Shown piece after piece: positions 38,748-62,882 of a DNA stretch of 64,000 bases. The stretch is taken from the IMG/VR virus record IMGVR_UViG_2925450510_000002; one strand, written 5' to 3'. Each line of letters opens with the position of its first letter. The first letter of the stretch is position 1. The DNA comes from a virus (taxonomy: Duplodnaviria > Heunggongvirae > Uroviricota > Caudoviricetes). Below the pieces are notes generated by a model that was given only the letters and a program-made list of their open reading frames with translations, was not told where the DNA came from and made no database searches. The translations under genes and the position numbers were made by a program.

Positions 38748-38767
38748 CACCGTAACATGTCGCAATC

Positions 38768-41191: not shown

Positions 41192-41199
41192 CCCTAAAA

Positions 41200-41219: not shown

Positions 41220-41256
41220 TAATCATGCGAGGATTTAGTCAATCTGTCGTGACATG

Positions 41257-44755: not shown

Positions 44756-44814
44756 TTACCCCCGCTTACCCGTTTAACTTATTGATTCAATTGATATCAA
44801 TGAAGATCGTTGTT

Positions 44815-45162: not shown

Positions 45163-45281
45163 GATTTTTACCTTATTGGTAATTTATAACCATAAACGGA
45201 TCAATATCAATAGTCTTGCGCATATTTTATTACCCTTTTGGTAAACATTAAGGCGTAAAAAAACGCGCTTCCGCGCCGGTA

Positions 45282-46831: not shown

Positions 46832-47085
46832 CAGATCACCTCCACGGCATTACCTTTTGAGGCCTCATGCATTAGCCGTTTTATCTCAGCATGGCGGCGG
46901 CGGTTAGTCTCGAGGGTGCATTCGACACAATGCCCGTTGTATACCCATCGCTCACTGTCATGGCCGTGCTTACATTGCTTACCGGTGTAGTAGCGCTTTA
47001 GTCCTGCCTTTGCCGCTTCGACGCGAGTAATGATCTCCATAGTTCCTGTCTCACTCTGGTTGTGGTTACGGTAATTTTGCAGCAA
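46831..47085 (-). CDS. small Cys/His-rich hypothetical protein
   Basis: 84 aa, CKHGHD...CVEC. Confidence 0.4.
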   Translation of the reverse strand: MLQNYRNHNQSETGTMEIITRVEAAKAGLKRYYTGKQCKHGHDSERWVYNGHCVECTLETNRRRHAEIKRLMHEASKGNAVEVI

Positions 47086-47186
47086 GCCAAAAAAAGATCA
47101 ACCGTATTTGGATAATTATTACCGAATTGGTGTACAGGGAGAGGCAGGAGCCGCCTGGGGGTGGCGGCGAGGGTGAGTTTTGAGGA

Positions 47187-47420
47187 TTAACGTTCGTGGA
47201 ACCAGAGGACCAGGTCGGATTTTGCGGAGATCCACTTACGGGATTTGCAGGCTTTAAACAGTCTTTCTAACAGAGGCTTACGTGGAATTCTTCTACGGCC
47301 AGTCAGGTGAACCTGAATGTAGTGGCTGGTCGTGCCGGCGTCACTTGCGAACTCTTCACGCTCTGCCGGAGAGAGGTCGAGCCAGCAGCGTTTGAAGTCA
47401 AATTTTTGCACATCGCTCAT
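47187..47420 (-). CDS. Cro/CII-like small HTH regulator (start uncertain)
   Basis: HTH-like SDAGTTSHYIQVHLTGRRRIP. Divergent from the plus-strand repressor. Confidence 0.45.
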   Translation of the reverse strand: MSDVQKFDFKRCWLDLSPAEREEFASDAGTTSHYIQVHLTGRRRIPRKPLLERLFKACKSRKWISAKSDLVLWFHER

Positions 47421-47458
47421 ATTTTTTAGTCCCGGACTAACTTTAGACAGCCTGATTA

Positions 47459-47520
47459 TTACCAATCTGGTGTAAAAATCAATGACTGTTACCTTTTTGG
47501 TAAGTTTACCTTTATGGTAA
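47459..47520. promoter_or_regulatory. operator cluster: TTACC-N5-GGTAA palindromes (47489..47503, 47506..47520) and an imperfect copy (47459..47473)
   Basis: Perfect 15-bp palindromes TTACCTTTTTGGTAA and TTACCTTTATGGTAA between the divergent regulators. Confidence 0.5.
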
Positions 47521-47573
47521 TATTCTATTAAATTTAATCAGTTAGGTAACAATTCCAGGCTAAAAAAATAGAA

Positions 47574-48155
47574 ATGAAAAGCATCTACGACATAAGACGC
47601 GACAACCTCAATGAGATAATCCGGAAGGATTTCGATAACACGCAACTCCGGTTTGCCGAGAGAATCAAAAAATCAGCTAACCTCGTTAACAGGTGGAGCA
47701 AGGGGACAAAAAATATCGGCGCTAACGCGGCACGCGAGATCGAGTCGTTCGCCGGAAAAGGTCGTTTCTGGCTGGATATCGACCATCTGTCAGATACCCC
47801 GACGCTGCCGGAGATTATCGACCCGCAGGAATGGAGTGTGGAAAAGCAGGCAGCGTTTACCCTGGGTGTATGGATGGGACAGCATCCGGATCTGAACTCA
47901 GAGAAAAAGGTTTCGGAAGCGGCCGGTATCGGCCAGGCGACCGTAAATCGCATCCTGAACTGCGAAGGCTCCACCAGCATTGGCGTACTGTCGGCTATCG
48001 CCAGGGCGTTCGGCCGCGATGCATATGAGCTGATCCTGCCGCCTGGTAATGCTGGTCTGATTGACTATGACCACCATGAATACGCCGGGCTGCCGCAGGA
48101 AGAGAAAAACAAGATCACCGCCTTCATCAAGTTCATCGTCAGCCAGAACCAGTAA
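47574..48155 (+). CDS. phage B repressor candidate with two HTH domains and no peptidase domain
   Basis: N-terminal and C-terminal XRE-like HTH segments. No Ser-Lys peptidase motif. Confidence 0.55.
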   Translation: MKSIYDIRRDNLNEIIRKDFDNTQLRFAERIKKSANLVNRWSKGTKNIGANAAREIESFAGKGRFWLDIDHLSDTPTLPEIIDPQEWSVEKQAAFTLGVWMGQHPDLNSEKKVSEAAGIGQATVNRILNCEGSTSIGVLSAIARAFGRDAYELILPPGNAGLIDYDHHEYAGLPQEEKNKITAFIKFIVSQNQ

Positions 48156-48219
48156 GCCTCTAATCTACCTGTCAATGCTGCAATCCTGCCGGGGGGATAA
48201 CTTCCCGCGCCTCATACAT

Positions 48220-48372
48220 TTACCATTTTGGTAAACTTTTCCTCGTCACATCTATTGACTAATTCGAAAATTGATCAGATTATTACCTTAACGGTAACAG
48301 CAGGGCGTTGAATTACCAGAAACCCACCACCGGGTGGCTTTCTCATACCCCCTGACATTTACCAAATGGTAA
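48220..48372. promoter_or_regulatory. second operator cluster: TTACCATTTTGGTAA (48220), TTACCTTAACGGTAA (48283), TTACCAAATGGTAA (48359)
   Basis: Three palindromes upstream of the plus-strand recombination operon. Confidence 0.45.
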
Positions 48373-48379
48373 TAGTGAG

Positions 48380-49471
48380 GTGTGTATGCAATGGCAAATC
48401 ATTAACGGCTGGTACTGCGTTACGGCATGCGGGCTGATGAGTTGGAAGTTTCGCACGCTGCCGGAAGCAATCAGCTGGGGCGTTCGTCAGCAAACTGGCA
48501 GCAAAAACGGAAATGGGTATGGGGGTGAGAAAGTGACTGATTTAGCAATTATCGAAATCGCGCCAGACATGGCGCCGGCAATTTACGTTGAGAACGGGCT
48601 TGATTCCTTCCTGGAAAAGATCCGCGCCGGAGTAAACGAAGTTCCTGACCTGAGCACTGCAAAGGGACGGGCTCGTATTGCATCGCTGGCCGCACAGGTA
48701 TCACGCAGCAAAACTGCTGTAGAGAAACCTGGCAGGGATTACCTGAAGCGCCTCAAGGAGCAGCCAAAAGTGGTTGAAGCTGAATTGCGCCGCTTCGTCA
48801 CCGAATGCGATCAGCTGCGCGATGAAGTACGCCGCCCTCTTACCGAGTGGGAAGATGCTGAAAAGGCGCGCACCGAAGCACTGCAGCAGCGCCTTGTGGA
48901 TTTGCGTGCGCTGGCTGACGTGATCGACACCGCCGGTAACTACCTGCCTTCTGCTGATATTCAGGCGCGCATTCTGGAAGCTAAATCCGTGGTACTGGAT
49001 GACAGTTGGCAGGAACGTGCAACAGAGGCGGGCGTGGCTAAGGATTCAACTATTCAGCAACTGGAAGCGTCGCTGGTAATAGCGCAAAAGCGCGAACATG
49101 AAGCCGCCGAGCTTGATCGCCTGCGCAAAGAGGCAGAAGAAAAAGCACGCCTTGAGCGTGAAGAGAATATCCGCCGTGAAGCCGCTGAACAGGCTAAGCG
49201 TGATGCAGAGGAAAAGGCACAGGCTGAAATTGATGCTGCTATCGCAGCGGAGCGCCGCCGTCAGGAAGAAGCTGAATCAGCGCGCCTGGCTGACCAGAAG
49301 CGCATTGCGGAAGAAGAAGCGCGCCGGGCCGCTGATAAAGAGCACCGCCGCAGCATCAATCGACAGGCTATCGCAGACCTGATTGAAAGCGGCCTTACGC
49401 AGAAAATGGCAGAGAAGGCACTGATCGCCATCGCCAGCGGGAAGGTATCTGCAGTCTCTATCAAGTACTAA
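48380..49471 (+). CDS. DUF1351-like coiled-coil protein (recombination module; start uncertain)
   Basis: C-terminal charged coiled coil (EAEEKARLEREENIRREAAEQAKRDAEEKAQ). Confidence 0.45.
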   Translation: MCMQWQIINGWYCVTACGLMSWKFRTLPEAISWGVRQQTGSKNGNGYGGEKVTDLAIIEIAPDMAPAIYVENGLDSFLEKIRAGVNEVPDLSTAKGRARIASLAAQVSRSKTAVEKPGRDYLKRLKEQPKVVEAELRRFVTECDQLRDEVRRPLTEWEDAEKARTEALQQRLVDLRALADVIDTAGNYLPSADIQARILEAKSVVLDDSWQERATEAGVAKDSTIQQLEASLVIAQKREHEAAELDRLRKEAEEKARLEREENIRREAAEQAKRDAEEKAQAEIDAAIAAERRRQEEAESARLADQKRIAEEEARRAADKEHRRSINRQAIADLIESGLTQKMAEKALIAIASGKVSAVSIKY

Positions 49472-49472
49472 G

Positions 49473-49778
49473 GTGCGTATGAACACTCAGCAGATTAACA
49501 ACCTGAAAAAAATCATGACCAGCATCGACAGCAACTACCAGCTGAGCCAGATGCACTATGAGCGACAGGTGGAGCTGATCGACGCGATCAAATACCACCA
49601 GCTGCAGAAACCTTTCTACGAACTGGAGCGCAAAGGCGTGCGCACCGAGATTCTGGAAGAACTGATGATGAGCCCGGAATTCGAAGAAGTTCTAGCGGCG
49701 TACCAGGCCGCGCTGACCAGCATCATCGCGAAGTGGGATCTGGCTGACCAACTGGATACGGCGAGGAACGCGGCATGA
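49473..49778 (+). CDS. hypothetical protein
   Basis: 101 aa. Confidence 0.45.
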   Translation: MRMNTQQINNLKKIMTSIDSNYQLSQMHYERQVELIDAIKYHQLQKPFYELERKGVRTEILEELMMSPEFEEVLAAYQAALTSIIAKWDLADQLDTARNAA

Positions 49779-50596
49779 CACCAGGAATTTACTTCGATAT
49801 CAGCAACGAGGACTACCACGCCGGCGACGGCGTGAGTAAGTCACAGCTGGATATGGTGGCGCTGAGCCCGGCCCTTCTGCAGTGGCAGAAATCAGCACCG
49901 GTCGATACCGAAAAGCTGAAAGCTCTGGATATGGGAACTGCCCTGCACTGCCTGCTTCTGGAGCCGGAAGAGTTCGATAAGCGCTTCATCGTGGCGCCAC
50001 CCTTTAACCGTCGAACAAACCAGGGGAAAGCGGATGAAGCGGCTTTCATGAAGGATTGCGAGGGGAGCGGGAAAACAATTATGGAGGCGGAGCAGGATCG
50101 TCAGTTGAAACTGATGCGTGATAGCGCAATGGCGCACCCGGCAGCGCGCTGGCTGCTTGAGGCGGAAGGATTCTGCGAAGCCTCTCACTACTGGAAGGAT
50201 CCGGAGACTGGAGAGTTGTGCCGCATACGCCCGGACAAGCGCCTGAAGAATCACCCTGTCCTGCTGGACGTGAAGAAGGTTGCCGATATGGAGCGTTTCT
50301 CGCGCCACATTGAGGAATTCCGGTATCACGTACAGGACGCGATGTACCGCGAAGGTGCGCAGCAGACCACCGGCGATCCGCATGGATTCTTCTTCCTGGC
50401 AGTGAGCGAAACCATTGACTGCGGCCGCTACCCGGTGCGGGTGTTCGAACTGGATGCGCAGGACGTGGACACAGGGTATGCGCTCTACCGCCGGGATCTG
50501 AATACCTATCACCAGTGCCGAGAAACCGGAGACTGGGGTGGATTTGAAGTTATTAAACGCCCTGAGTGGGCACGCAAACAGGATATGTACGTATGA
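49775..50596 (+). CDS. PD-(D/E)XK exonuclease (YqaJ/DUF3799-like), RecT partner
   Basis: DISNEDYHAGDGVSKSQL...RPDKR...LLDVKK motifs. Confidence 0.6.
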   Translation: MTPGIYFDISNEDYHAGDGVSKSQLDMVALSPALLQWQKSAPVDTEKLKALDMGTALHCLLLEPEEFDKRFIVAPPFNRRTNQGKADEAAFMKDCEGSGKTIMEAEQDRQLKLMRDSAMAHPAARWLLEAEGFCEASHYWKDPETGELCRIRPDKRLKNHPVLLDVKKVADMERFSRHIEEFRYHVQDAMYREGAQQTTGDPHGFFFLAVSETIDCGRYPVRVFELDAQDVDTGYALYRRDLNTYHQCRETGDWGGFEVIKRPEWARKQDMYV

Positions 50597-51474
50597 GCAA
50601 CGACATCGCAATCACTTCTCAGCCTGGTGCTACCGTCGGCACCGCCGCGGCAATCTTCAGCCCGGAAGGGATGGATCGCCTGGTGCGATTTGCCACCCTG
50701 ATGGCTGACAGCAAAGCCACCGTTCCGGCGCACCTGGCTGGAAAGCCAGCTGACTGCCTGGCGGTGACTATGCAAGCGGCGCAGTGGGGAATGAACCCGT
50801 TCGCGGTAGCGCAGAAAACTCATGTGGTAAACGGCACGCTTGGCTATGAAGCGCAACTGGTTAATGCGGTTGTCTCTTCCTCAAACCTTCTGGCCACTCG
50901 TCTGAACTACAAATGGGATGGCGACTGGTCAAAGGTAAGCGGGAAAACCGACAAATCGCCGAGCCTGACAGTGACAGTGTGGGCAACCATTAAAGGCGAA
51001 TCTGAGCCTCGCACCCTGACCATCAGCATGGCGCAAGCCGGAGTGCGCAACTCACCCCTCTGGGAGCAGGATCCGCGTCAGCAACTGGCTTACCTGTGTG
51101 TTAAGCGCTGGGCACGCCTGCACGCCCCTGATGTTCTCCTTGGCGTCTACACCCCTGACGAATTGCAGGAAGCAGCACCGCGTGTTGAGCGCGACATTAC
51201 GCCACCGGCTAGCACCGCTGCGGGGATGAATCAGCTGATCAATTCGCACCCCGATCAGCACCATGAAGAGAAGGCGAAAAAGACTGACGACCGCGCCCCA
51301 GAAGACATTCTCTCTGGCTTCTCTTCTGCGGCTATGGCGGCTCGTAACGTTGCAGAACTGGACAAGGCATACAAATACGCGGCCCACCGTCTGGCTGGCA
51401 ACCAGGAGTTACTGGACGCTGCCACCGATGTATACGGCATCCGCAAAGACGAACTGAACGAAGTCCATATGTAA
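50593..51474 (+). CDS. RecT-family single-strand annealing recombinase
   Basis: CLAVTMQAAQWGMNPFAVAQKTHVVNGTLGYEAQL. ATGA overlap with the exonuclease gene. Confidence 0.65.
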   Translation: MSNDIAITSQPGATVGTAAAIFSPEGMDRLVRFATLMADSKATVPAHLAGKPADCLAVTMQAAQWGMNPFAVAQKTHVVNGTLGYEAQLVNAVVSSSNLLATRLNYKWDGDWSKVSGKTDKSPSLTVTVWATIKGESEPRTLTISMAQAGVRNSPLWEQDPRQQLAYLCVKRWARLHAPDVLLGVYTPDELQEAAPRVERDITPPASTAAGMNQLINSHPDQHHEEKAKKTDDRAPEDILSGFSSAAMAARNVAELDKAYKYAAHRLAGNQELLDAATDVYGIRKDELNEVHM

Positions 51475-51522
51475 TCACCACCGCGGCGCGCCCGGCGCCG
51501 CACTGAAAAAAGAGAGGTAACG

Positions 51523-51771
51523 ATGAAAGGTGCATTAGGCAAAAAGGAACTGCTGGCGGTGGTGCCTGTATCGATGAGCACTATCGACCGCATGGAGAAA
51601 AACGGGGAGTTCCCTAAGCGTTTCTGGATCACAGACAAGCGCTGTGCCTGGAACAGCGAAGAGATCGAGCGCTGGCTTGATGAACGTCAGCAGAACGGCA
51701 CCACAGAGTTTGCTGGAAAAAAGCCTCCGGTTGAGCAGCGAGTATTTCGCCCGGTTGGTAACGCGGCGTGA
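51523..51771 (+). CDS. AlpA-family HTH (excisionase/regulator)
   Basis: LLAVVPVSMSTIDRMEKNGEFPKRFWITDKRCAWNSEEIERW. Confidence 0.55.
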   Translation: MKGALGKKELLAVVPVSMSTIDRMEKNGEFPKRFWITDKRCAWNSEEIERWLDERQQNGTTEFAGKKPPVEQRVFRPVGNAA

Positions 51772-51880
51772 CGTCGCTGGCGAGGTACTGGGAAAGGTGG
51801 TCAGGATGGTTTCTGTACCTGGCCGCTGTATCCGCCTGGCTGTTCCTGCTGGCGGTCATTTTTCGAGAGGGTTGGATACG

Positions 51881-52174
51881 ATGAATCGGATGGAAAAATA
51901 CCACGCGGATTATGTCTCGCAGCGCAAAGCACCCCCTCTTGTCGCCGTAACGCCGGCGGCAATGGAGATCGAGCAGCGCGCTATTGCCCGCGAGAACAAA
52001 GGCCAGTTCCGCCTGGCCGCTCGCCTCTGGCTTGAGTGCATGGATGCGGCCACTGGCGAGGTTGAGCGGGCCCGTATCGCTATACGCCGCGATCAGTGCA
52101 TTGGCCGCGGGAACCGGCTTCGCCAGGGATGCTATGCCGGGATCTGCGCCACCGCCGGGGTGATTTATGACTAA
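51881..52174 (+). CDS. PerC-like small regulator
   Basis: AIARENKGQFRLAARLWLECMDAATGEVERARIAIRRDQC. GAGAGGG SD. Confidence 0.4.
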   Translation: MNRMEKYHADYVSQRKAPPLVAVTPAAMEIEQRAIARENKGQFRLAARLWLECMDAATGEVERARIAIRRDQCIGRGNRLRQGCYAGICATAGVIYD

Positions 52175-52321
52175 CCCACACGACAGCATTCGCGTAGGAA
52201 GTATCACGCTGGTTTATTCGTCCGTGCGGCGTGGCTGGCTGGCGCCGGGCGGCCAGGTTATCCAGAACCCGCTGAAGGCTCAGCGCCTGGCTGAGCAACT
52301 GAATAGCAAGAAGGTGGCAGT

Positions 52322-53071
52322 ATGAAAGAACGCGGAATGATTTTTAACGGGGAGATGGTGCGGGCCATCCTCGACGGCCGGAAGACGCAGACTCGGCGGG
52401 TTATGAAGGTACAGCCGAAGCCATCGAAATCACGACCAGGGGATTTTTGGTTTTCATCGAAAAAATTAGAAAGCATGGTGCACGTTTCTGACCTTGCGCC
52501 TGGCAACTCACCTATTGCCGATTATCACCTTTTCATTCAGGAGCATTGCTGCCCGTTCGGAGCAGTCGGCGACCGCATCTGGGTGCGTGAAACGTGGGGA
52601 GTAGTCAGCCACGAATTGGATGAGGATGGTCGAATCCAACCATGGACGCCAGACCGGCCGGCTACGGTTATTCATGAAATGCCGTTTGGCAACGGCTATT
52701 ACTCTGGTCACGCCATTTATGCAGCTGATGGCGATTTCACCTGGGGTGATGACGATGGTTATGAAGATGGTCGTTCGTGCTGGAAACCTTCCATTCATAT
52801 GCCGAGAGCAGCCAGCCGCATTCTTCTGGAAATCACCGACGTGCGGGTTGAGCGGCTGAACGCTATTAGCCAAGAAGATGCTCAAGCTGAAGGCATGGAG
52901 CTTACCGGGTGGCGGCCTACATACTCTGACCCGGATAGCGGCGGCGAGGTTATGACGCCATACGACAACTTTGCTGAGTTGTGGTCATCCATCTACGGCG
53001 AAGGAAGCTGGAAGGCTGACCCCTGGGTTTGGGTTATTTCGTTTAAGCGCGTTGAAGGCGGTGCAGCATGA
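52322..53071 (+). CDS. ASCH (PUA-like) domain protein
   Basis: MIFNGEMVRAILDGRKTQTRR...GDRIWVRETW pattern. Overlaps the methylase start. Confidence 0.5.
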   Translation: MKERGMIFNGEMVRAILDGRKTQTRRVMKVQPKPSKSRPGDFWFSSKKLESMVHVSDLAPGNSPIADYHLFIQEHCCPFGAVGDRIWVRETWGVVSHELDEDGRIQPWTPDRPATVIHEMPFGNGYYSGHAIYAADGDFTWGDDDGYEDGRSCWKPSIHMPRAASRILLEITDVRVERLNAISQEDAQAEGMELTGWRPTYSDPDSGGEVMTPYDNFAELWSSIYGEGSWKADPWVWVISFKRVEGGAA

Positions 53072-53661
53072 GCGGAAAATACACCCTGATCTATGCGGAT
53101 CCGCCTTGGGCATACCGCGACAAGGCCGCTGACGGTGACCGCGGCGCCGGTTTCAAATATCCAGTTATGAATTACCTGGATATCTGCCGGCTGCCTGTGT
53201 GGGAACTGGCTGCCAACGATTGCCTTCTGGCTATGTGGTGGGTACCGACTCAGCCGATTGAGGCGCTGAAAGTCATGGAGGCTTGGGGATTCCGCCTGAT
53301 GACCATGAAGGGATTCACCTGGCACAAGACGAACAAGCACAAAGGGAACAGCGCGATCGGCATGGGCCATATGACCCGGGCGAACAGCGAAGACTGCCTG
53401 TTTGCGGTGCGCGGGAAACTTCCGGCCCGCATGGACGCCTCGATCTGCCAGCACGTCACGGCGCCGCGCCTGGAGAACTCGCGCAAACCGGACATTATCC
53501 GCGAGAAACTGGTGCAGCTGCTTGGCGATGTCCCGCGCATTGAGCTCTTCGCCCGCCAGTCGTCTCACGGTTTCGATGTGTGGGGGAACCAGTGCACGGC
53601 GCCGGCGGTTGAGTTGCTGCCAGGCTGCGCAGTGCCGGTAGTGAAGACGGAGGCCGCATGA
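53068..53661 (+). CDS. MT-A70 family N6-adenine DNA methyltransferase (orphan)
   Basis: IYADPPW motif. No adjacent restriction endonuclease. Confidence 0.8.
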   Translation: MSGKYTLIYADPPWAYRDKAADGDRGAGFKYPVMNYLDICRLPVWELAANDCLLAMWWVPTQPIEALKVMEAWGFRLMTMKGFTWHKTNKHKGNSAIGMGHMTRANSEDCLFAVRGKLPARMDASICQHVTAPRLENSRKPDIIREKLVQLLGDVPRIELFARQSSHGFDVWGNQCTAPAVELLPGCAVPVVKTEAA

Positions 53662-53849
53662 ACATTGCCGAAGAGGCCTCGCTGATACGACAACTCGAAG
53701 AGGCGCGCGCCATTATCAACCAGAGGAATGGTGAGATCCTTCACCTGCAGCGAGAAGCGGCGCGCTACCGTGAGCAGCGGGATTCTGCAAACGCGATGGT
53801 TAAGTTCCTGCGCGGGCTTTTTGAGAATTCTTCGAAGGCGACACAATGA
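53658..53849 (+). CDS. small coiled-coil protein
   Basis: 63 aa. Confidence 0.4.
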   Translation: MNIAEEASLIRQLEEARAIINQRNGEILHLQREAARYREQRDSANAMVKFLRGLFENSSKATQ

Positions 53850-53865
53850 GCCGCCTCCGGGCGGA

Positions 53866-55116
53866 CTATTGTTCATTCATCCACTTTTCAAATGCAGACG
53901 GGGAGAACGGCACCAGGTCGTAATGCTCCCCGTTTATCCATGCATCAACCATATTTGCCCACTGCTGCAGCATGTAGGCCCGCTGCCTGGAATACTCGGC
54001 CTTGTTGTAAACGGCCCTCACGCCCTTCTGTTCATGCGCCAGCGCCTTCTCTATCCAGTCTGAAGGGAATCCCGCTTCATGCAAAAGCGTGCTCGCTGTG
54101 CGCCGCAGGTCGTGCACTGTTAGAGGTTGCAGGTTCTCCCCGGCATCCGATGCCGCAGCAACCGCGCGATCGATGACTGAGTTCAGAGCGGCATTGGATA
54201 GCGGCTTACTGGTGCTGTAGCGACCTGGCAACAGATAATCACTCCCGCCGGCGCACATCTGCAGGCCTATCATCAGATCCTGCGCCTGAGGCGGCAGATA
54301 GATGACGTGCAACCGGCTCCCCTTCATCCTGTCAGATGGGATCGTCCAGGTTCCTTTGCTGAAATCCACCTCTTTCCACGTCGCCATGATGAACTCGGTT
54401 TTGCGCACCATCGTGATCAGGATGAGCTTCACAGCCAGTTTTAAGGTTGGCAAAGTGCTGACGGTATCGAGAGACCTGAACAGCACGCCGATTTCTTCCG
54501 GCTGCAGGCAACGGTCACGCGGTTTAAACATGGCGATCGCCGAAGGTTTGATATCTGCGGCCGGGTTGAATAACCCGTGCCCGCGGTCATTGGCGTACCG
54601 GTACACGCTGCTGATGATTTCACGCGCCTGCACCGCCGTCGCACGTCCACCGCGCTCGACTATGCGATCGCAAAGATCACGCACCATAGGGGTCGTTATC
54701 TCGGACATCATTTTGTTTCCGAGAACAGGCAAAATATCCCGGTCGATTACTGATTGTTTCATAGCCCGCGTGCTGTCAGCCAGGACCACATGTTTCATGT
54801 AGGCGTCGGTATGTACCGTAAATGTTTCGGCGCCGCGGATCCGCTTGATACCGTCACGCTTCGCTGCAGCCGGCGACTGGCCTGCGTTCAGCAGTTTTTT
54901 AGCGGCTATCAGCTCATCCCTGGCTTCAGCCAGTGTGATACCGTCACGACCATACTGACCGATAACCAGCGTCTCCCGGCGGCCGTTGATGCGGTAATCG
55001 TAACGAAACGAGATGGTGCCTGAGATCAGCACGGCTACATACAGACCGTCGCGATCGGAGACCTTGTACATTTTGCCCTGCGGTTTCAGGTTTTTTAATT
55101 TGGTATCGGTAAGCAC
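53866..55116 (-). CDS. int: tyrosine integrase (P4-like, DUF4102 N-terminal arm-binding domain)
   Basis: MLTDTKLKNLKP N-terminus and a C-terminal catalytic domain with a conserved RHDLRRT motif. Confidence 0.85.
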   Translation of the reverse strand: MLTDTKLKNLKPQGKMYKVSDRDGLYVAVLISGTISFRYDYRINGRRETLVIGQYGRDGITLAEARDELIAAKKLLNAGQSPAAAKRDGIKRIRGAETFTVHTDAYMKHVVLADSTRAMKQSVIDRDILPVLGNKMMSEITTPMVRDLCDRIVERGGRATAVQAREIISSVYRYANDRGHGLFNPAADIKPSAIAMFKPRDRCLQPEEIGVLFRSLDTVSTLPTLKLAVKLILITMVRKTEFIMATWKEVDFSKGTWTIPSDRMKGSRLHVIYLPPQAQDLMIGLQMCAGGSDYLLPGRYSTSKPLSNAALNSVIDRAVAAASDAGENLQPLTVHDLRRTASTLLHEAGFPSDWIEKALAHEQKGVRAVYNKAEYSRQRAYMLQQWANMVDAWINGEHYDLVPFSPSAFEKWMNEQ

Positions 55117-55139
55117 ATTTCACCCGTGATGCATCATTT

Positions 55140-55410
55140 TTCTGACGGTACGAGAGTATACCGTAATGGTAATACCGTCATGTATACCGTCAAAAAATGT
55201 GAGATAGAGTGAATTGATATGGTGTGATATAAAGAAAAACCCCCTGAATTAACAGAGGGTTAAAGAAGTATTTGAGTAGATATGATTAGCTATAAGGTAG
55301 CCGTTAATCATTCCCACTCAATTATTTACAACACTCGTAACCAATTGACTGGAAACAAGTTTATTAAACGATAAATTCTGCATACCGTTTTATATACCGT
55401 CACCGGGAAA
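55140..55410. promoter_or_regulatory. attP-like region: clustered ATACCGT arm-type repeats flanking an AT-rich core
   Basis: ATACCGT at about 55158, 55172 and 55184, an inverted copy at 55145, two more at 55383 and 55394, and TACCATG twice at 55414-55432. Immediately upstream of int. Confidence 0.45.
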
Positions 55411-55432
55411 CAGTACCATGAAAAATACCATG

Positions 55433-55915
55433 CTACCTGGTCAGTTCATCGTACTGCCTTTCGCATACCCTTCCGGCTTCAGCTGCCCGGTCAGCGTATT
55501 CTGCCAGTTGTCGGTTTCGTTCGAGAGATTTTTCGAACACGTCGGTAAGCAAAATTCCGGTGTCTGCGGCTGACGACCCAGCGCCGACAGTGGCGTTATA
55601 CTGCCTGAGCTGCTCACGGATGGCAACGAGCTGCTGCTGCAGCCGGCCAGCGCGAGCGGCAGCATCAAGAGCATCATTGCGCGCCTGGTCGATCCTCTGC
55701 TGCGCCTCACGTTCATTGGTTGCTTTCTCCTGTTCATCATGTTGACGGGCTTTCTCATCTTCTGCTTTGCGGTCAGCCTTCGCCTGCGCATACCCGGCGT
55801 CGTACTGTCTGTCACCGTGAATATTCCAGGCTATAACGCCGCCGGCCACCAGAGCAGCAAGCATCGACACGATAAGCAACTGTTTCCAGTATGCTTCCAC
55901 AAATGCCGTGATCAT
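55433..55915 (-). CDS. i-spanin (Rz-like)
   Basis: Starts at MITAFVEAYW (TM) followed by a coiled coil. ATGA overlap with the endolysin stop. Confidence 0.55.
   Translation of the reverse strand: MITAFVEAYWKQLLIVSMLAALVAGGVIAWNIHGDRQYDAGYAQAKADRKAEDEKARQHDEQEKATNEREAQQRIDQARNDALDAAARAGRLQQQLVAIREQLRQYNATVGAGSSAADTGILLTDVFEKSLERNRQLAEYADRAAEAGRVCERQYDELTR
55441..55677 (-). CDS. o-spanin (Rz1-like) fully embedded in the i-spanin gene
   Basis: MMLLMLPLALAGCSS lipobox in the +1 frame. Confidence 0.5.
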   Translation of the reverse strand: MMLLMLPLALAGCSSSSLPSVSSSGSITPLSALGRQPQTPEFCLPTCSKNLSNETDNWQNTLTGQLKPEGYAKGSTMN

Positions 55916-56541
55916 GATGCCAGCACCTTCTTGGCCGACAGGTAACGCACACGGCGATCGTCGATGCCATTCTGCCCGCCGTTGATGATCTGCGTGACGC
56001 GCATCAGGTCGTCGGTGTACTTCAGGCATCCATATTTCACGAAGTACCACGCCGCGCTCCGCGCCGCATACTCGTCCTGCGCCAGCAGCTCCGGCTGCTT
56101 AACCAGATCCACCCTCAGGGCAGCCCCGCAATCGCGGTAGTTGTTTAGTCCGGTGGTCTGGATGAGACCGCGACCGCGGTAAAACCAGCCGTCGGTAGGC
56201 CCGTTATTCCCCATGCGTTTGCTGTACACCAGATTGGCAATGGCCCGCTGCCTCTCCAGTGGCAACGATGGTTCACCCTGCCGGCGCCCGAGGGAATTAG
56301 CCTGTCCCTGCGTCAGCCTCCCGGCACGGACGAAACCAGCCAGCCCCGCCACGCTGTAATTGAAGCTCTCAACGAGCTGGGTAAATCCAGTGCTTTCATG
56401 CCCGGCCTGGGCAATAAACATCGCCTGATCCAACGGCTTGATGATGCCAAACTCTTTCATGGCCGCCACAATGTGCGGATGCCAGCGTGTGGCCAACGCC
56501 AGGCTAACGCCGGCAGCTTTCTGAAACTCGTTAATGTCCAT
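55912..56541 (-). CDS. GH19 chitinase-like endolysin
   Basis: GHESTGF and GRGLIQTTG motifs. Confidence 0.75.
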   Translation of the reverse strand: MDINEFQKAAGVSLALATRWHPHIVAAMKEFGIIKPLDQAMFIAQAGHESTGFTQLVESFNYSVAGLAGFVRAGRLTQGQANSLGRRQGEPSLPLERQRAIANLVYSKRMGNNGPTDGWFYRGRGLIQTTGLNNYRDCGAALRVDLVKQPELLAQDEYAARSAAWYFVKYGCLKYTDDLMRVTQIINGGQNGIDDRRVRYLSAKKVLAS

Positions 56542-56836
56542 GTTGCGACCTCGATATCTTGAAGATTTGCACGACGTTGCCGCGCGTCTTCAGCACCGCG
56601 GCGAACATCACAGCATTGATAACGACCTCAGAAAGATCTGCGGTCATGGGGAAGTGGTACAGGTATGAGTACGCGGTGCGAAGCGGGATACTGGCCGCCG
56701 CCACGATGAGGAAATAGGCTATCCACCCGCCCCAGCGGCGGTGGCGCGATCCGTTGCGCTGGAAGAACATCACCCGCAGCGCTATCCCGCCGCAGATGAT
56801 TGCATTAGCGATAAGCAGCAGATCATGGCCTGTCAT
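56531..56836 (-). CDS. holin/antiholin-like membrane protein
   Basis: 101 aa with 3 TM segments. Confidence 0.45.
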   Translation of the reverse strand: MTGHDLLLIANAIICGGIALRVMFFQRNGSRHRRWGGWIAYFLIVAAASIPLRTAYSYLYHFPMTADLSEVVINAVMFAAVLKTRGNVVQIFKISRSQHGH

Positions 56837-57236
56837 CGTCTTTTCCTCCCGGGATTAAATCGCGCGGATTGTCAGAGCGGTGATACAGCCATATTCCAAC
56901 CCGCACAGCGACAATCGCCGCAACGAACGCGCCGGCGGAGTAGACAATGCCGCGCTCGAACGAGTCCTGTGTGATGGTGGGGATCATGCTGGCAACGCCG
57001 ATAAGGATTGATGCTGTGGGTTTGTAGAAGAGAAGACCGCAGAGAAAGCTGAGTAGTGCCAGGAGAACGCGGCGCTTGACCGGATACTCAACTGCAGAGG
57101 TAACAAAAATTACCGCCCCGGCCAGCGATCCCAGCGCCACTTCAGGAGGTACGCCGGCGATAACTGCCGCCAGCGCACCGTAGCTAAGCCCCTGATTTAT
57201 TGTATCAGCGGTTAGCGATGCAGACATGATGACCAC
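56823..57236 (-). CDS. holin-like membrane protein
   Basis: 137 aa with 3-4 TM segments. First gene of the lysis cassette. Confidence 0.5.
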   Translation of the reverse strand: MVIMSASLTADTINQGLSYGALAAVIAGVPPEVALGSLAGAVIFVTSAVEYPVKRRVLLALLSFLCGLLFYKPTASILIGVASMIPTITQDSFERGIVYSAGAFVAAIVAVRVGIWLYHRSDNPRDLIPGGKDDDRP

Positions 57237-57489
57237 CGTTTACTATGCATGATGAACCTCCTTAGTTTGGTAAGTTCATCATACACAATAAACCAAATAC
57301 GGATAGATGGTAATTTACTAATTAATTATTTCACTAGGTCCTTGATTCGCTGCATCTTGCACAGATAGTCCTTGCTCATAAAATTCATACCATGCCATTT
57401 TGTAGGGTGCACATTTTCCATTATGTGCCAGAATAATACATAATTCTTGATACCATGCATCAAATGCATCATTTTCACTTTGTTCCATA

Positions 57490-57655
57490 TTATGCCCTTA
57501 GTTTTGCACTGATAACTCTGCTGGCAGAGTCTATCGCTGTTAATGTTACGGTTAAGGTCTTACCATCAGAAGAGATAGCAAAAGAAAGCGAAACCCCGGT
57601 TGGACTAGCAGAGGTAATGCCCCACGTTCCACCACTAACAGTGGCAAAAGTTCTA
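57490..57655 (-). pseudogene. orphan C-terminal fragment, probably the displaced 3' end of the phage B tail fibre gene
   Basis: The open frame runs from inside IS copy 2 out to a stop at 57490. Encodes a beta-rich ...GVSLSFAISSDGKTLTVTLTAIDSASRVISAKLRA tail. Confidence 0.35.
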
Positions 57656-58851
<1,196 letters not shown>

Positions 58852-58856
58852 CCTAG

Positions 58857-58953
58857 TGTGGTTGCAGACCTCGCTGAATTAGCAATAGCAACAAATAAAA
58901 TAGCTAACTCAGCAACATATTCTTCCGGTTATAAGGATGCTAAAAATGTCTGA
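58857..58953 (+). pseudogene. 3' part of the IS-disrupted phage A ORF (pairs with 16907..17133)
   Basis: Same reading frame once the TSD is collapsed (...LSSVVADLAELAIATNKIANSATYSSGYKDAKNV). Confidence 0.5.
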
Positions 58954-59134
58954 TATCACTTTGCAAAAAGCAGCATCAAAGGCTTACCAGGCTGAGATTG
59001 TGGCGAGGATGCTTGAGAACTACCCTCATAAACTGACCGACTCAGACGTGGAATCTGTCGCCTCACTTTTGGCTGATCTGATTGGGCCAGTTGCAGCGTA
59101 CCTTATTGAGGAAGAGTCTAAAAACCCGGCTTAA
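58946..59134 (+). CDS. small hypothetical protein
   Basis: 62 aa with an AAGGA SD. ATGTCTGA overlap with the upstream stop. Confidence 0.4.
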   Translation: MSDITLQKAASKAYQAEIVARMLENYPHKLTDSDVESVASLLADLIGPVAAYLIEEESKNPA

Positions 59135-59303
59135 AAATTTAATTAGTAATTTTAATTACAGGAGTAATCCCGGGGATTTCTGCAATCAAATTAAGGGTAA
59201 CCATGATTAATAAACAAGCATTTAAAACAGCTCAGTTATTTGTCTCTCTTGGTTATTGGTCTATAGCCATGCTTTATTTAAAAAAGGCTTACGGTAAATA
59301 AAA

Positions 59304-59669
59304 GTGAATAATTTAATTAGCACTTATAGACGCAGAATTTTAAAAGCGGCCTTGTTACGCCACCAGCGAAAGACTGGGAGTAGCTTACTTGTCATTAAGC
59401 TCAACAAGGGTGGGATTAGTACTATCGAATTAACTGAGATTCTTCTTGATGGATTGTTGCGGAAATTCGAGCGACTGGCGCTCGGTGAATACGGAAATGT
59501 GGAAGGTGTGAAAGCTCTTAAGGGAATTTACAGCAACTCTGTTGATGTTAATGGCAGCGGCGAATTCCTCACAGAAAGCGGGAAAGAGTTAATCGACGAG
59601 CTTATTTCTGAACTGGTTGAGTTCGTCAAAAAGCAGAAACCAGTTACTGCGGAGTCCGGCAATGAATAA
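59304..59669 (+). CDS. hypothetical protein
   Basis: 121 aa. Confidence 0.45.
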   Translation: MNNLISTYRRRILKAALLRHQRKTGSSLLVIKLNKGGISTIELTEILLDGLLRKFERLALGEYGNVEGVKALKGIYSNSVDVNGSGEFLTESGKELIDELISELVEFVKKQKPVTAESGNE

Positions 59670-59916
59670 CCAGCAAACAATGCTCTATCAGGGTGTGCTG
59701 ATCCCCCGCCCCGTGTTGAACGTGGATCTGCATGTCCTCCCTGATTTTACCGGGCGGGTAGTCTTGCACATCGAGAACGGGAGGGTGATATGCGACCGCC
59801 AGCTGTTCGACGACGAGCACATTTGCACACTGGCCACGTTTATCGAAATGGCCCGCGACGCGGGGTTGAGGATCGAGGAGGAAGCTGGTGGCACTGACAG
59901 CGATACGAATTCCTGA
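59662..59916 (+). CDS. hypothetical protein
   Basis: 84 aa. Start overlaps the previous stop. Confidence 0.4.
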   Translation: MNNQQTMLYQGVLIPRPVLNVDLHVLPDFTGRVVLHIENGRVICDRQLFDDEHICTLATFIEMARDAGLRIEEEAGGTDSDTNS

Positions 59917-60102
59917 GAGGGTTCACCTGCAGGCGCTGCAGGTCCTGCTGCGGTATCGGCGCCGGCGGATATTCCCGCGGCGAATGCGCCGCACCGGCTA
60001 CCTCAGCCTGAAGGTTAACCCACGCTGGCGCCTGTTATCGAAAGACGATGGCCGGAACTGGGAAGTTATGAGTCATGAAACCTATAACCGGGAGAAAGAC
60101 AA

Positions 60103-60528
60103 ATGATTGACAACAGAACTGTCAGCGCCATTGACCTGGCGTTGCAAAAGCACCCAACGCCAGTTGGTGATCTGTTCGCCGCGATCCGCCACGGACGCAT
60201 GAAGCGGTGCTTCAGCCGGGATACCGCAATTCGTTACCTGGCGTTCTTCATGACCTCCCGAGCTTTTGGGCGTTCTGGTTTCAAGCAGCGTTATCCGGAC
60301 GTGCAGGTAATTCATCCACTGAATCCAGAACTGAGTAGCTGGCAACGTGGCGCCGTGACCACTGAGTATTTTAACGCCCACCAGCGCACCGTTCGCCGGC
60401 TGCGTCGCATCCTCGCCCGCAAAAGAGAAATGCAAAAGTGGTGCAAAAAGTGGGATGCCATGCACGACCGCTACGTGAAAGAGCGCGAAGAACTACAGGC
60501 CTGTAAGCCTGGAGGGCTGAGTCGATGA
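60103..60528 (+). CDS. hypothetical protein, first gene of a coupled 4-gene block
   Basis: 141 aa. Stop overlaps the next start. Confidence 0.45.
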   Translation: MIDNRTVSAIDLALQKHPTPVGDLFAAIRHGRMKRCFSRDTAIRYLAFFMTSRAFGRSGFKQRYPDVQVIHPLNPELSSWQRGAVTTEYFNAHQRTVRRLRRILARKREMQKWCKKWDAMHDRYVKEREELQACKPGGLSR

Positions 60529-60719
60529 TTGCTTACTTACGCATTGTTCTATCGGTGGTGATTGTCGCCAGCGTTTATGGGCTGTTCGTTCCGATCCTCA
60601 TTTCGATGAAGGACACGACAGCAGTTATATCCGGTTTTGCCCTGGCGATTCTGACCCCGCCGTGCATCTACGCCATTTGTAAGGGTCTTGTGCTTACCGT
60701 AACGAAGGAAAAGAAATGA
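60525..60719 (+). CDS. small two-TM membrane protein
   Basis: 64 aa. ATGA coupling on both sides. Confidence 0.45.
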   Translation: MIAYLRIVLSVVIVASVYGLFVPILISMKDTTAVISGFALAILTPPCIYAICKGLVLTVTKEKK

Positions 60720-61543
60720 AAAAAGCAATTATGGCTTCAATTATCGCACTCTCTGCCATCGGCCTTGTTGGTTGCGATCGAGTTGAGCCCGGCAACGTGG
60801 GTATCAAGGTGAATAAGTTGGGCGACGATAAAGGCGTTGGTGAAGTCGTCGGCGTCGGCCGCTACTGGACCGGCTGGAATACCGAGGTTTATATCTTTCC
60901 GACCTTCAAGCAGATGAAAACGTATGAAGACGCTTTCAACTTCCAGATGAGCGATGGAACCACCATCGGCTACCACATCGGGGTCGCGTACAAGGTTGAT
61001 CCGACCAAAGTTACAACCGTTTTCCAGACCTACCGTAAAGGCGTGGACGACATCACCGACACCGACCTGCGGCAGAAAATTGCTGACGCCCTTAATCGTC
61101 TCGCAAGTCGGATGAGCACCGATAAATTCATTGACGGCGGGAAAGCTGAGCTGCTTGAAAACGCACTGAAAGAGATCCAGTCCGATATGGGGCCGGTTGG
61201 TATCCAGGTGATCAGCCTTTCTTACGTTGGCCGTCCGGAATACCCGCCGACAGTGATCGAAAGCATCAACGCCAAAGTTACGGCCAACCAGAAGACGCTG
61301 CAGCGCGAGCAGGAAGTTAAACAACGTGAAGCTGAAGCCAACATGTTACGAGCCGAAGCCGATGGCCAGGCGGATGCAAAGCTGAAATTGGCTGAAGCAG
61401 AAGCAAAGTCTATCCAGATCCGTGGGCAGGCCTTGCGTGAGAACCCTGAGGTACTGCAACTGGAGGCCATCAACAAATGGAATGGCACCCTGCCCCAGTA
61501 CATGACCAGCGGAACAAACACCCCTTTTATCCAGGTTAAATGA
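60716..61543 (+). CDS. SPFH/band-7 (prohibitin/flotillin-like) lipoprotein
   Basis: Lipobox LVGC, an SPFH core, and a C-terminal coiled coil (EQEVKQREAEANMLRAEADGQADAKLKLAEAEAK). Confidence 0.7.
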   Translation: MKKAIMASIIALSAIGLVGCDRVEPGNVGIKVNKLGDDKGVGEVVGVGRYWTGWNTEVYIFPTFKQMKTYEDAFNFQMSDGTTIGYHIGVAYKVDPTKVTTVFQTYRKGVDDITDTDLRQKIADALNRLASRMSTDKFIDGGKAELLENALKEIQSDMGPVGIQVISLSYVGRPEYPPTVIESINAKVTANQKTLQREQEVKQREAEANMLRAEADGQADAKLKLAEAEAKSIQIRGQALRENPEVLQLEAINKWNGTLPQYMTSGTNTPFIQVK

Positions 61544-62166
61544 TCCACCAGCCCGGCGACAAGCCGGGCACATATGAGAGGTTCGCAATGCTTCAGAACA
61601 TGCTTAACCCGGAACCAACCTCAACAGGGATCCGGTCTGGAAACCGGGTGATTGGCTACTCCGCTGCTATTCGCCTGCTGGATAACGGTCGCTATGACAA
61701 ACACCTTGCCGATGGAATGGAAATTCTGGCCTGCATCATGGAAGCGGTAGAAAGCAACTGGATCACGCTCAATATCGAAAAAGAGTTGATCCTCTGGCGC
61801 TGGTTACTGGCTGCCGTGTTCATCACTGAGGAGCTGGAGAAAAACGGAACTGTCGACGTTCCGAATGATACTGGCGGTGTTGATACTGCTGTTATCTATT
61901 CCAGCAAGCATGGCGCCATTAGCGTCTATCCGGGACCTGAACGCTTTGCACTCGCCAACCATATTGAGCTGGGGGCAATCGAGAAATATGGGCCAGAGGT
62001 TGGCCAGCAGCTGGCGCTGCGGATGTATCAGGACATGGTTATTGCTGACGAAGAATTTGGGTTCAGGTTATCAGCACTTGGCCGGGAGGGGCTTAACCTC
62101 CTCCATGACAGCTTTATCGAACACATCCAGATCGAAGGTGTGCCCGAAGCACCGATTATGCATTGA
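61540..62166 (+). CDS. hypothetical protein
   Basis: 208 aa. Coupled to the SPFH gene. Confidence 0.5.
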   Translation: MIHQPGDKPGTYERFAMLQNMLNPEPTSTGIRSGNRVIGYSAAIRLLDNGRYDKHLADGMEILACIMEAVESNWITLNIEKELILWRWLLAAVFITEELEKNGTVDVPNDTGGVDTAVIYSSKHGAISVYPGPERFALANHIELGAIEKYGPEVGQQLALRMYQDMVIADEEFGFRLSALGREGLNLLHDSFIEHIQIEGVPEAPIMH

Positions 62167-62882
62167 GGGGAATGATGATGAATAACTTGATCACTAACAA
62201 ACCATCCATGACCAGCCTTGAGATCGCCGAGCTGGTAGAAAAACGCCACGACAACGTGAAACGCACGATTGAGACCCTGATTATGCGTGGCGTTATTACT
62301 TCTCCTCAAATTGAGGAAAAGCCTACTGCCGGGCGCCCCACAACAATTTACGTTTTTGAAAGTGAAGAAGGGAAGCGTGACAGCATCATTGTGGTCGCGC
62401 AACTCAGCCCCGAGTTTACCGCCAGACTGGTAGATCGCTGGAAAGAGCTGGAAGAAGAACGCTCCCGGCCAAAATCGCAGGCAGAGCTGATCGCTGAAAT
62501 GGCCCTGCTGAATGTTGAGCAGGAACGACGCCTCTACCAGGTTGAAGAACAGGTGGAAACCGTAGTCGAAGCTGTCGAAAACATTAAGCGTGGAAATATG
62601 CGGGCCGGGTATGTCGGTTATCGCCAGGTGGTCGCAAAAAGCGGCATGACCGATGCCAAGTGTCGAAACCTTGTTAACGCATACCGTATCCCAACCGATA
62701 CACACGAATTCATGACGCCTGATGGTTTACTGTCTCGCCGGGCGATCGTGGAGTTTGAACCTTTTATGAAAGCATTCCGCCAAATGATGGCAGAAGCCGA
62801 ACCACGTGGGACCCGTTGGTATCACCCGAAAATGGGACTCTTTCAGGCTATCGGATGGGAGGAAAAACATTGTGAAAATTGA
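62163..62882 (+). CDS. Rha-family phage regulatory protein
   Basis: TSLEIAELVEKRHDNVKRTIETL Rha N-domain. Confidence 0.65.
   Translation: MRGMMMNNLITNKPSMTSLEIAELVEKRHDNVKRTIETLIMRGVITSPQIEEKPTAGRPTTIYVFESEEGKRDSIIVVAQLSPEFTARLVDRWKELEEERSRPKSQAELIAEMALLNVEQERRLYQVEEQVETVVEAVENIKRGNMRAGYVGYRQVVAKSGMTDAKCRNLVNAYRIPTDTHEFMTPDGLLSRRAIVEFEPFMKAFRQMMAEAEPRGTRWYHPKMGLFQAIGWEEKHCEN

Follow-up and report, generated by a model that had tools for sequence, protein, structure and literature searches.

The subject of this analysis is a block of four open reading frames (ORFs), g1 to g4, at positions 60103-62166 of a 64,000-nucleotide stretch of IMG/VR virus record IMGVR_UViG_2925450510_000002 (Caudoviricetes); we refer to the whole stretch as the window. 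The block belongs to a lambdoid Klebsiella prophage, called phage A here, into which an epsilon15-like phage, called phage B, has been inserted. Our comparisons indicate that the block consists of two unrelated modules, nested in the early operon of phage A. One is a trio made up of g1, g4 and a 40-amino-acid ORF upstream of g1 (u40). The other is a promoter-less cassette of g2 and g3, which are predicted to encode a small membrane hairpin and a lipoprotein with an SPFH domain, respectively. In the reading that we favour, these modules would lie in an operon transcribed from a cI-repressed left promoter (PL), and g2-g3 would form a membrane module of early lytic growth. We give this reading an even chance of being correct.

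The features on which the argument depends are as follows.

60103..60528, + strand: g1, 141 amino acids; phrog_1886
60525..60719, + strand: g2, 64 amino acids; phrog_1130
60716..61543, + strand: g3, 275 amino acids; phrog_200
61588..62166, + strand: g4, 192 amino acids from its likely start; ORF open from 61540 (61540-62166, 208 amino acids); phrog_1515
59984..60106, + strand: u40, a basic ORF of 40 amino acids, ATGA-coupled to g1
60510..61576, + strand: g2-g3 cassette, 1,067 bp at the g1/g4 junction; the near-isogenic locus without the cassette is L189

Evidence for two modules comes from locus L189, in which u40, g1 and g4 (3489-4603) are present and the cassette is missing. Window positions 59900-60509 match L189 3404-4013 with 98.9% identity, and positions 61577-62300 match L189 4017-4740 with 99.9% identity. 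The gap between the matched segments is 3 nucleotides in L189 versus 1,067 in the window (60510-61576). In L189, g1 has 146 amino acids and overlaps the start codon of g4. The cassette, which starts 15 nucleotides before the ATG of g2 and ends 33 nucleotides past the stop codon of g3, replaces the last 6 codons of g1 and brings a new Shine-Dalgarno sequence for g4.

Surveys of other loci agree with this picture. Among 80 viral loci retrieved with g4, g1 is followed directly by g4, without g2-g3, in 58 (56 of them with u40), and the order u40-g1-g2-g3-g4 is found in 22. A separate set of 80 IMG/VR loci was retrieved with g3. Here g2 is always directly upstream of g3; g1 is 36-100% identical or missing; and g4 is present only in Klebsiella-type loci, with two loci having a g4 relative upstream of g2. 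The overlapping genes u40, g1 and g4 form a conserved trio in many enterobacterial prophages, and g1 also adjoins g4 in an E. coli prophage (L167) whose g4 is 58% identical. Because g1 and g4 are adjacent in 58 of the 80 loci, and because the flanks of the cassette are about 99% identical in L189, we regard the block as two nested modules and not as one four-gene unit. An earlier note on this DNA had treated it as a single system, and on this point it has to be revised. Morons carry their own promoter and terminator. We did not class the cassette as a moron, as its + strand showed nothing promoter-like and a convincing terminator was also lacking.

As the earlier note had stated, the four ORFs lie on the same strand with short overlaps; every junction is a 4-nucleotide ATGA. 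The note had also regarded the genes as coupled. However, u40 likewise overlaps g1 by ATGA and the entire operon is closely packed, so coupling is not peculiar to these four genes. Moreover, the start of g4 is most likely M17 (61588). A Shine-Dalgarno sequence, GAGAGG, lies 5' of 61588, while 61540 has a weak one. The first 7 codons of the 208-amino-acid ORF are missing in relatives that lack the cassette, and nearly all g4 homologues have 192-193 amino acids. Given this start, the overlap between g3 and g4 probably reflects no real coupling.

Control region of phage A and the rex position

The location of the block was judged from the following features of phage A.

15758..16006, - strand: cro-like repressor gene, labelled 'regulatory protein Cro' in the 100%-identical MK416019
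16000..16072, no strand: right operator (OR) region, with operator-like AATAC-N5-GTATT at 16000-16014 and 16058-16072 and PR-like promoters on the minus strand
16077..16745, + strand: cI repressor, 222 amino acids, helix-turn-helix and S24 peptidase type
16749..16772, + strand: intrinsic terminator 3' of cI, GGCCGC-GAAA-GCGGC followed by T9
16840..16890, + strand: left operator (OL)/PL-like region, which mirrors OR; it contains a perfect operator (16867-16881) and the candidate hexamers TTGATC (-35) and TATTGT (-10)
16907..17133, + strand: first gene in the early-left operon, interrupted by the insertion; matches the MK416019 locus
58937..59916, + strand: three small early-operon ORFs (phrog_1478, phrog_1737, phrog_340)
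62175..62882, + strand: Rha/Ant-type antirepressor-like gene 3' of the block (Pfam Phage_pRha, 6.3e-10; phrog_63, 1.3e-51)

Several Klebsiella pneumoniae prophages, e.g., ST11-VIM1phi8.3 (MK416019), share the phage A region with 100% identity. Window positions 6177-17133 correspond to positions 1-10957 of the MK416019 locus, and 58853-64000 to 10954-16101. In this uninterrupted relative, the end of cI and the start of g1 are 1.6 kb apart, with six ORFs in between. The earlier description of the block as downstream of cI is thus loosely true, but in the window cI lies 43 kb upstream, with a 41,719-bp insertion in between; in this strain, the insertion separates the block from its natural promoter by the same distance.

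The block had been assigned to the position of the rex genes. In the annotated map of lambda, rexA and rexB occupy the interval from cI to OL and share the cI transcript. In phage A, a strong terminator begins four bases after cI. About 70 nucleotides past this terminator, positions 16844-16889 repeat the sequence between cro and cI (15992-16045) in the opposite orientation, in the form of inverted repeats I1 (34 nucleotides, 82% complementary) and I2 (19 nucleotides, 89% complementary). With at most one mismatch, AATAC-N5-GTATT occurs 5 times in the 64 kb versus 1.2 times expected, and three of the five sites lie in the immunity region (16000, 16058 and 16867). The operator at 16867 lies 26 nucleotides before the next gene. 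The candidate PL hexamers were read by eye from the sequence, and a consensus promoter scan missed both.

Since the terminator would end the cI transcript before any downstream gene, the rex slot appears to be empty. Since the terminator and the mirrored operator lie directly 3' of cI, the block can be placed in a PL-type operon, which argues against a rex position. We therefore predict that the genes from 16907 onward, the block included, make up an early-left operon under cI repression, which extends in the direction of the antirepressor and integrase genes. Phage Fraca, which is HK97-like, has g1-g2-g3 in the same interval between cI and int, and the order cI, small genes, g1-g2-g3, antirepressor, int is common to Fraca and MK416019. 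The consensus scan found no promoter-like sites on the + strand between 58700 and 64000.

Searches at the protein level give no reason to include the block in the Rex system. None of its proteins is similar to RexA or RexB at better than E 0.3 (blastp, phmmer --max), and none resembles any lambda PL product. The earlier note had proposed a PADLOC search, and no PADLOC model was matched by any block protein: with PADLOC-DB v2, g1, g2 and g4 gave nothing, and g3 aligned only to PbeC, through its coiled coil (E 0.032, 10.7 bits). We rejected membership in the lambda Rex system because the block is not between cI and OL but 1.6 kb further on, within the predicted PL operon.

The g2-g3 pair and its relatives

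Residues 22-208 of g3 match the Pfam family Band_7 (PF01145; E 8e-32, 111.1 bits, cut-off 23.6). They are preceded by a signal peptide and lipobox, MKKAIMASIIALSAIGLVG-C20-DR, in which the lipobox is L-V-G-C20 and an Asp occupies the +2 position. This fits the pattern [LVI][ASTVI][GAS]C, by which we classify g3 as a predicted lipoprotein. With a crude pattern, a lipobox-like Cys was recognised in 93 of 142 full-length representatives of the family. A coiled coil extends over approximately residues 190-250, and the C-terminal motif KWNGxLPxYM is conserved. In a profile search against solved structures, positions 194-253 align to the coiled coil of prohibitin-2 (2.9e-6), and positions 115-247 to HflK (3.5e-6) and to HflC and QmcA (approximately 1.2e-5 to 1.3e-5); these matches come from the profile alone, as a single-sequence phmmer search with g3 found nothing. 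Prohibitin, HflK/C and QmcA build rings or cages. The earlier account of gene 3 as a lipoprotein with an SPFH core and a C-terminal coiled coil is thus borne out. An exhaustive search of 1.84 billion representatives yielded 2,808 relatives of g3 at E<=1e-3 and 219 at E<=1e-30.

The protein belongs to phrog_200, annotated 'lipoprotein' (E 2e-111), and PHROG 200, MbpS of Kayvirus and the N4-like ORFs labelled 'lipoprotein/serine protease' are all the same family. An old GenBank label for g3, 'serine protease', was unsupported in every scan. Its best matches in NCBIfam are hflC and hflK, but these are weak (TIGR01932, 27.5 bits versus a cut-off of 134.4; TIGR01933, 18.9 versus 159.4), and we rejected an identity as HflK or HflC because the scores are far under the equivalog cut-offs.

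The g2 protein has two hydrophobic segments, as expected from the earlier description of a 64-amino-acid protein with two transmembrane (TM) segments. Between them is a turn motif, P23-x-L-I-S27, and the C-terminus is a basic tail, KEKK. We predict a two-TM hairpin with both termini in the cytoplasm (N-in/C-in). No Pfam match was found for g2 at E<=0.1. Among 17 diverse partners of this type, there was no NfeD (PF01957), no holin family and no consistent Pfam family. A YrhC-like match of the partner from Dyella (21.3 bits, cut-off 27) was not seen for g2 and was taken as composition noise. P23 never varies in the alignment of partners, and S27 and G37 hardly do.

We defined a g2-like ORF as one with P-x-[LFMAVI]-[IVLFM]-[SN] between two hydrophobic stretches. 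Such an ORF is directly upstream of the g3 relative in 136 of 146 loci with at least 33% identity to g3, versus 4 of 18,955 background frames. Together with the fusions described below, this adjacency supports the proposal that the small two-TM gene is the partner of the SPFH gene.

Relatives of g3 were found by tblastn in 689 phage records, both virulent and temperate. The virulent carriers include N4-like phages, Vequintavirinae, Ounavirinae, Bruynoghevirus and phiCbK-like, Kayvirus and crAss-like phages; Stx phages and one P1-like phage also have relatives, as do 719 of 5,426 complete E. coli genomes (13%). In the four virulent phages of Gram-negative hosts that we inspected, the g3 relative is among early or middle (DNA-metabolism) genes. 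In two of these, the N4-like Fifi011 (gp56) and the rV5-like 4MG (gp235), a two-TM protein of 63-67 amino acids is encoded just upstream and has the same turn as g2 (VPxLVSAKDT / FPRMVSAPDT). A scan of one genome per species added relatives in Enterobacterales, Sutterella, Cupriavidus, Methylococcales, Dependentiae and Bacteroidota, and in many Dyella and other Rhodanobacteraceae, with a two-TM ORF of 52-75 amino acids directly upstream. In 21 of 39 loci from Rhodanobacteraceae, the pair has conserved flanking genes. In the only one of these loci whose flanks were scanned (L117), they encode a BlaR1-type M56 peptidase and a BlaI-type repressor and are not phage genes. Because of this conservation and these flanks, the pair appears to be a cellular module as well.

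Among the 142 full-length representatives, at least 11 have the partner fused in frame to the SPFH protein. In these, a partner with a P-x-L-[IV]-S turn is followed by a basic linker, a third hydrophobic segment that ends in a lipobox-like Cys, and the SPFH domain. One fusion, P0385, aligns at its N-terminus with g2 (40% identity, E 2e-9). The four fusions that we looked up are in phage-like arrays of small ORFs. The fusions imply that g2 and g3 are functionally tied, and that the partner would be N-in/C-in, with its turn and the SPFH domain in the periplasm and on the same membrane.

Some loci deviate from the typical arrangement or have additional features. On a metagenomic phage contig (L248), a gene for an Acb2/Tad1 hairpin domain (PF24729, 218-520) is two genes upstream of P0385. 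Acb2/Tad1 proteins are a family of anti-CBASS and anti-Thoeris sponges. This is a single case and no evidence of a link. Gemmatimonadaceae (L149-L166) have distant relatives of g3, with 26-29% identity and no lipobox. Their partner is different: a conserved protein of approximately 87 amino acids that has a single TM segment and a zinc ribbon (CPxC...CPxC). In Shigella flexneri and E. coli loci (L090/L091, 4027-5001), the homologues of g2 and g3 are approximately 790 nucleotides apart, with no overlap; this gap suggests an insertion between the partners, of the size of an insertion sequence (IS).

A known arrangement that parallels g2-g3 is that of the NfeD-SPFH operons, e.g., YbbJ-QmcA and YqiJ-YqiK of E. 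coli, YuaF-FloT of Bacillus subtilis and PH1510-PH1511 of Pyrococcus. Here too, the gene of a small membrane protein is directly upstream of the SPFH gene, translationally coupled to it, found across phyla and occasionally fused, and g3 shares the SPFH-plus-coiled-coil build of the cage formers. However, the partner of g3 has approximately 52-75 amino acids, with two TM segments, a short turn and no NfeD/OB-fold domain. Furthermore, g3 is anchored through its lipobox and would face the periplasm, whereas the other SPFH proteins have an N-terminal TM segment or hairpin and face the cytoplasm. Finally, most members of the g2-g3 family are phage-borne.

Candidate functions of the pair

We propose the following mechanism for the pair. 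By its sequence and the rules for Sec, Lgt/Lsp and Lol processing, g3 would be exported and lipid-modified at Cys20. An Asp at +2 favours retention of a lipoprotein in the inner membrane (the Lol-avoidance rule), and g3 would probably stay there, with its SPFH domain and coiled coil facing the periplasm. Homology to prohibitin, HflK/C and QmcA suggests that it may oligomerise, forming a ring or cage. The conserved adjacency of the genes and their natural fusions indicate that it works with g2, whose positive-inside charges and the fusion architecture are consistent with an N-in/C-in hairpin in the same membrane. The periplasmic P-x-L-I-S turn of g2 would then adjoin the lipid-proximal conserved segment of g3, C-D-R-V-E-P-G. 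From the anatomy of the operon, the pair is expected to be made from PL early in lytic growth, and not in the lysogen.

As to what such a pair would do, our tentative suggestion, to which we attach well under an even chance, is that g3 corrals g2 or a patch of the inner membrane and so keeps envelope integrity and membrane potential under control during infection. A general role of the membrane-stress type, which the earlier note had mentioned, is possible. A bolder and rather unlikely proposal is that the pair is a new two-component SPFH system, in which a periplasmic lipid-anchored scaffold and an obligate hairpin of approximately 60 amino acids serve as a widespread phage device for membrane protection or counter-defence, carried as an early-gene cassette by many unrelated families of virulent and temperate phages and kept by some bacteria as a chromosomal pair. 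If this were true, the system would control the integrity or potential of the inner membrane, e.g., to blunt membrane-targeting abortive-infection effectors or premature lysis.

Several points weigh against the favoured reading. Together with the membrane-control role, it was derived from sequence throughout, and the cage of g3 is proposed by homology only. The residue at +2 is variable in the family (T 21, S 21, D 12 and G 11 among the representatives), and the Arg that follows the Asp in g3 may weaken the retention in the inner membrane that this Asp predicts. The motif that defines a g2-like ORF was derived from the loci that were later counted, many of which are closely related. In PaP4 and SunLIRen, no recognisable two-TM partner was found. 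MbpS of Kayvirus is encoded in the lysis region and not in an early region (PMC7150955). The promoter scan was a matching of consensus sequences only, so an internal or lysogen-active promoter is still possible. In this strain, PL is severed from the block by 41.7 kb, and any expression could be due to transcription that continues from the IS5 transposase gene.

It is important to consider other roles that would explain the same observations. After membrane control, the next most likely is superinfection exclusion early in infection, in which g3 and the hairpin would alter or shield inner-membrane components needed for DNA entry by later phages; we consider it unlikely. Imm and Sp of T4 and Llp of T5 are precedents for exclusion by a phage. 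The predicted early expression and envelope location would suit this role, as would the occurrence of the pair in both virulent and temperate phages, and g3 is a phage-encoded lipoprotein like the early exclusion proteins Llp (T5) and Cor (phi80 and N15). However, Llp, which is made early in infection, and Cor are small outer-membrane lipoproteins that block a receptor, whereas g3, an SPFH scaffold of 28 kDa, has its partner in the inner membrane, and a sequence relationship to Llp or Cor is not expected. In a comparison that covered lambda SieB, the pair resembled no known exclusion protein, and the literature searches returned no experimental report. The cellular orthologues in Rhodanobacteraceae argue for a more general membrane function. 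It is less likely still that g3 modulates FtsH or another membrane protease in the manner of HflK/C, tuning the stability of phage or host proteins in analogy to lambda cIII. Its closest solved relatives include HflK and HflC (3.5e-6 and 1.2e-5), which are also its weak best matches in NCBIfam. Its SPFH domain is likewise predicted to face the periplasm on the inner membrane. The position in the PL operon would fit as well, as cIII is a product of that operon in lambda and HflK/HflC have historically been linked to the lysis-lysogeny decision of this phage. Against this stand the score of 27.5 versus 134.4 bits, far under the equivalog cut-off, and the gene arrangement: g3 is a single SPFH gene with a lipid anchor, next to a 64-amino-acid hairpin, whereas HflK and HflC are tandem paralogues anchored by TM helices. 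Moreover, no cII-like gene is annotated beside cro in the intact relative MK416019, and members of the family are common in virulent phages, for which no lysogeny decision arises. About equally improbable is an accessory role in the timing of lysis, with g2 as a holin- or antiholin-like hairpin that g3 sequesters. In its size, two TM segments and charged C-terminus, g2 is like a class II holin, and mbpS of Kayvirus adjoins the holin-like mbpV, between lysK and tgl (PMC7150955). However, phage A has a complete lysis cassette elsewhere, away from the block, and in phage A and the four virulent phages of Gram-negative hosts the pair lies in early or DNA-metabolism regions. The identification of g2 itself as a class II holin was rejected in view of that lysis cassette and the lack of a match to any holin family.

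Two explanations would require expression in the lysogen. One is that the prophage expresses the pair for Rex-like abortive infection or exclusion, so that the membrane is depolarised when another phage infects the lysogen; g1 and g4 would be sensors or accessory proteins. It could appeal to a membrane pair that a prophage encodes on the cI strand, as with RexA/RexB, to the holin-like size and topology of g2, and to the fact that SPFH proteins regulate channels and proteases. The IS5 transposase gene also reads toward the block, and constitutive read-through is conceivable in this strain. The differences outweigh this likeness. While rexA and rexB occupy the cI-OL interval and are expressed in the lysogen, here a terminator and OL/PL separate cI from the operon, and the cassette has no promoter of its own. 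RexB has four TM segments, twice as many as g2. Neither RexA nor RexB is similar in sequence to the block proteins, a RexA-like partner and a PADLOC match are lacking, and g1 and g4 are outside the conserved unit. Strictly virulent phages, for which abortive infection would be senseless, commonly carry the pair, and it also occurs in conserved chromosomal contexts outside phages. We conclude that g2-g3 is not a Rex-like abortive-infection switch, an explanation that we consider very improbable. The earlier suggestion of an abortive-infection-like module in the rex position is accordingly not supported, which removes a false lead. The other explanation, and to us the least probable of all, is lysogenic conversion, with g3 as a surface or vesicle lipoprotein in the interaction of host and pathogen. 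This has been claimed for PM0222, an HflK/C-like SPFH protein of a Pasteurella multocida prophage island that is reported to be released in outer-membrane vesicles and to be a TLR1/2 agonist (PMC9872710). While the host here is also a pathogen, K. pneumoniae, the operon anatomy predicts repression in lysogens, the Asp at +2 predicts retention in the inner membrane, and members of the family are found widely among virulent and environmental phages.

SPFH proteins are among the commonest phage genes of unknown function. In the literature that we searched, their function in phages is a matter of speculation (PMC7150955, PMC13239085), apart from the report on PM0222 (PMC9872710). Secretion has been suggested (PMC7150955), and a 2026 paper states that the reason for an SPFH protein in a phage genome 'remains unclear' (PMC13239085). 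The searches returned no description of an obligate two-TM partner or of the fusions. While the SPFH family is already annotated and common, the fixed partner, the fusions and the behaviour as a cassette may be new. The analysis adds a fixed small membrane partner with a topology derived from fusions, a promoter-less cassette, and near-isogenic prophages with and without it, and these make the function directly testable.

Flanking genes and the IS5-bracketed insertion

The g1 protein is basic (isoelectric point 10.7) and g4 is acidic (4.7), and both are predicted to be cytoplasmic. Approximately 315 homologues of g1 were found, only in Enterobacterales and nearly all in Enterobacteriaceae; the approximately 357 homologues of g4 are also nearly all in Enterobacteriaceae. 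The pairing of a basic with an acidic protein and the overlap of their genes suggest that g1 and g4 may form a complex. Neither has a match in Pfam, NCBIfam or PADLOC or a fold match, and only PHROG families were hit (phrog_1886 and phrog_1515). The flanking genes thus remain without an assigned function, as the earlier note had it, and the match to known metabolic families that it had named as evidence against its proposal was seen for neither. An old GenBank label for g4, '2-polyprenylphenol hydrolase', was unsupported in every scan. RefSeq labels the u40 homologue of the E. coli prophage L167 a 'ParE family toxin-like protein'; this had no NCBIfam support and is not used here.

The insertion that separates cI from the block has the following parts.

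17134..58852, no strand: insertion of 41,719 bp, in which two IS5 copies enclose an epsilon15-like prophage genome; flanked by a duplicated CTAG target
~17134-18328: left IS5, transposase region 17202-18181 frameshifted into ORFs of 71 and 299 amino acids
~57656-58852: right IS5, with an intact transposase of 326 amino acids (57724-58704) reading toward the block
between the IS5 copies, ~39.3 kb: phage B genome, with integrase at 53866-55116 and lysis genes at 55433-57236

The host strain therefore carries an unusual insertion, a whole phage bracketed by IS5 inside the early operon of another prophage. It cuts the first gene 3' of cI, which is the first PL gene of phage A. The two IS5 copies are in direct orientation, and 1 bp is missing from the left copy compared with the right (repeat spacing 40522 versus 40523). 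The CTAG duplication is at the outer ends of the insertion (17130-17133 and 58853-58856), and the 4-mers at its inner flanks differ (TTAA and CTAA). A search with the joined junction, for continuity of phage B across the IS5 copies, found no phage record that spans it. The composite resembles the product of recombination between a circular phage genome with its own IS5 and an IS5 copy resident in phage A, or else a cointegrate.

A comparable case was seen in E. coli NZ_LR536431, where an IS5-family transposase gene (L167, 1937-2917) lies between the first small genes and a phrog_1737-like gene. Prophage L167 is unrelated but has the same early-left gene set, with IS5 in the equivalent PL-proximal interval, which hints that this interval is a recurrent target of IS5.

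Two further observations concern phage B. Between 19247 and 48297, the palindrome TTACC-N5-GGTAA occurs 10 times in perfect form and 14 times with at most one mismatch, versus 0.78 expected. Several of these sites are paired (45168/45230, 47489/47506 and 48220/48283), and a regulator encoded by phage B probably binds to these palindromes. Finally, an 83-nucleotide unit is present in perfect tandem duplication at 21991-22156.

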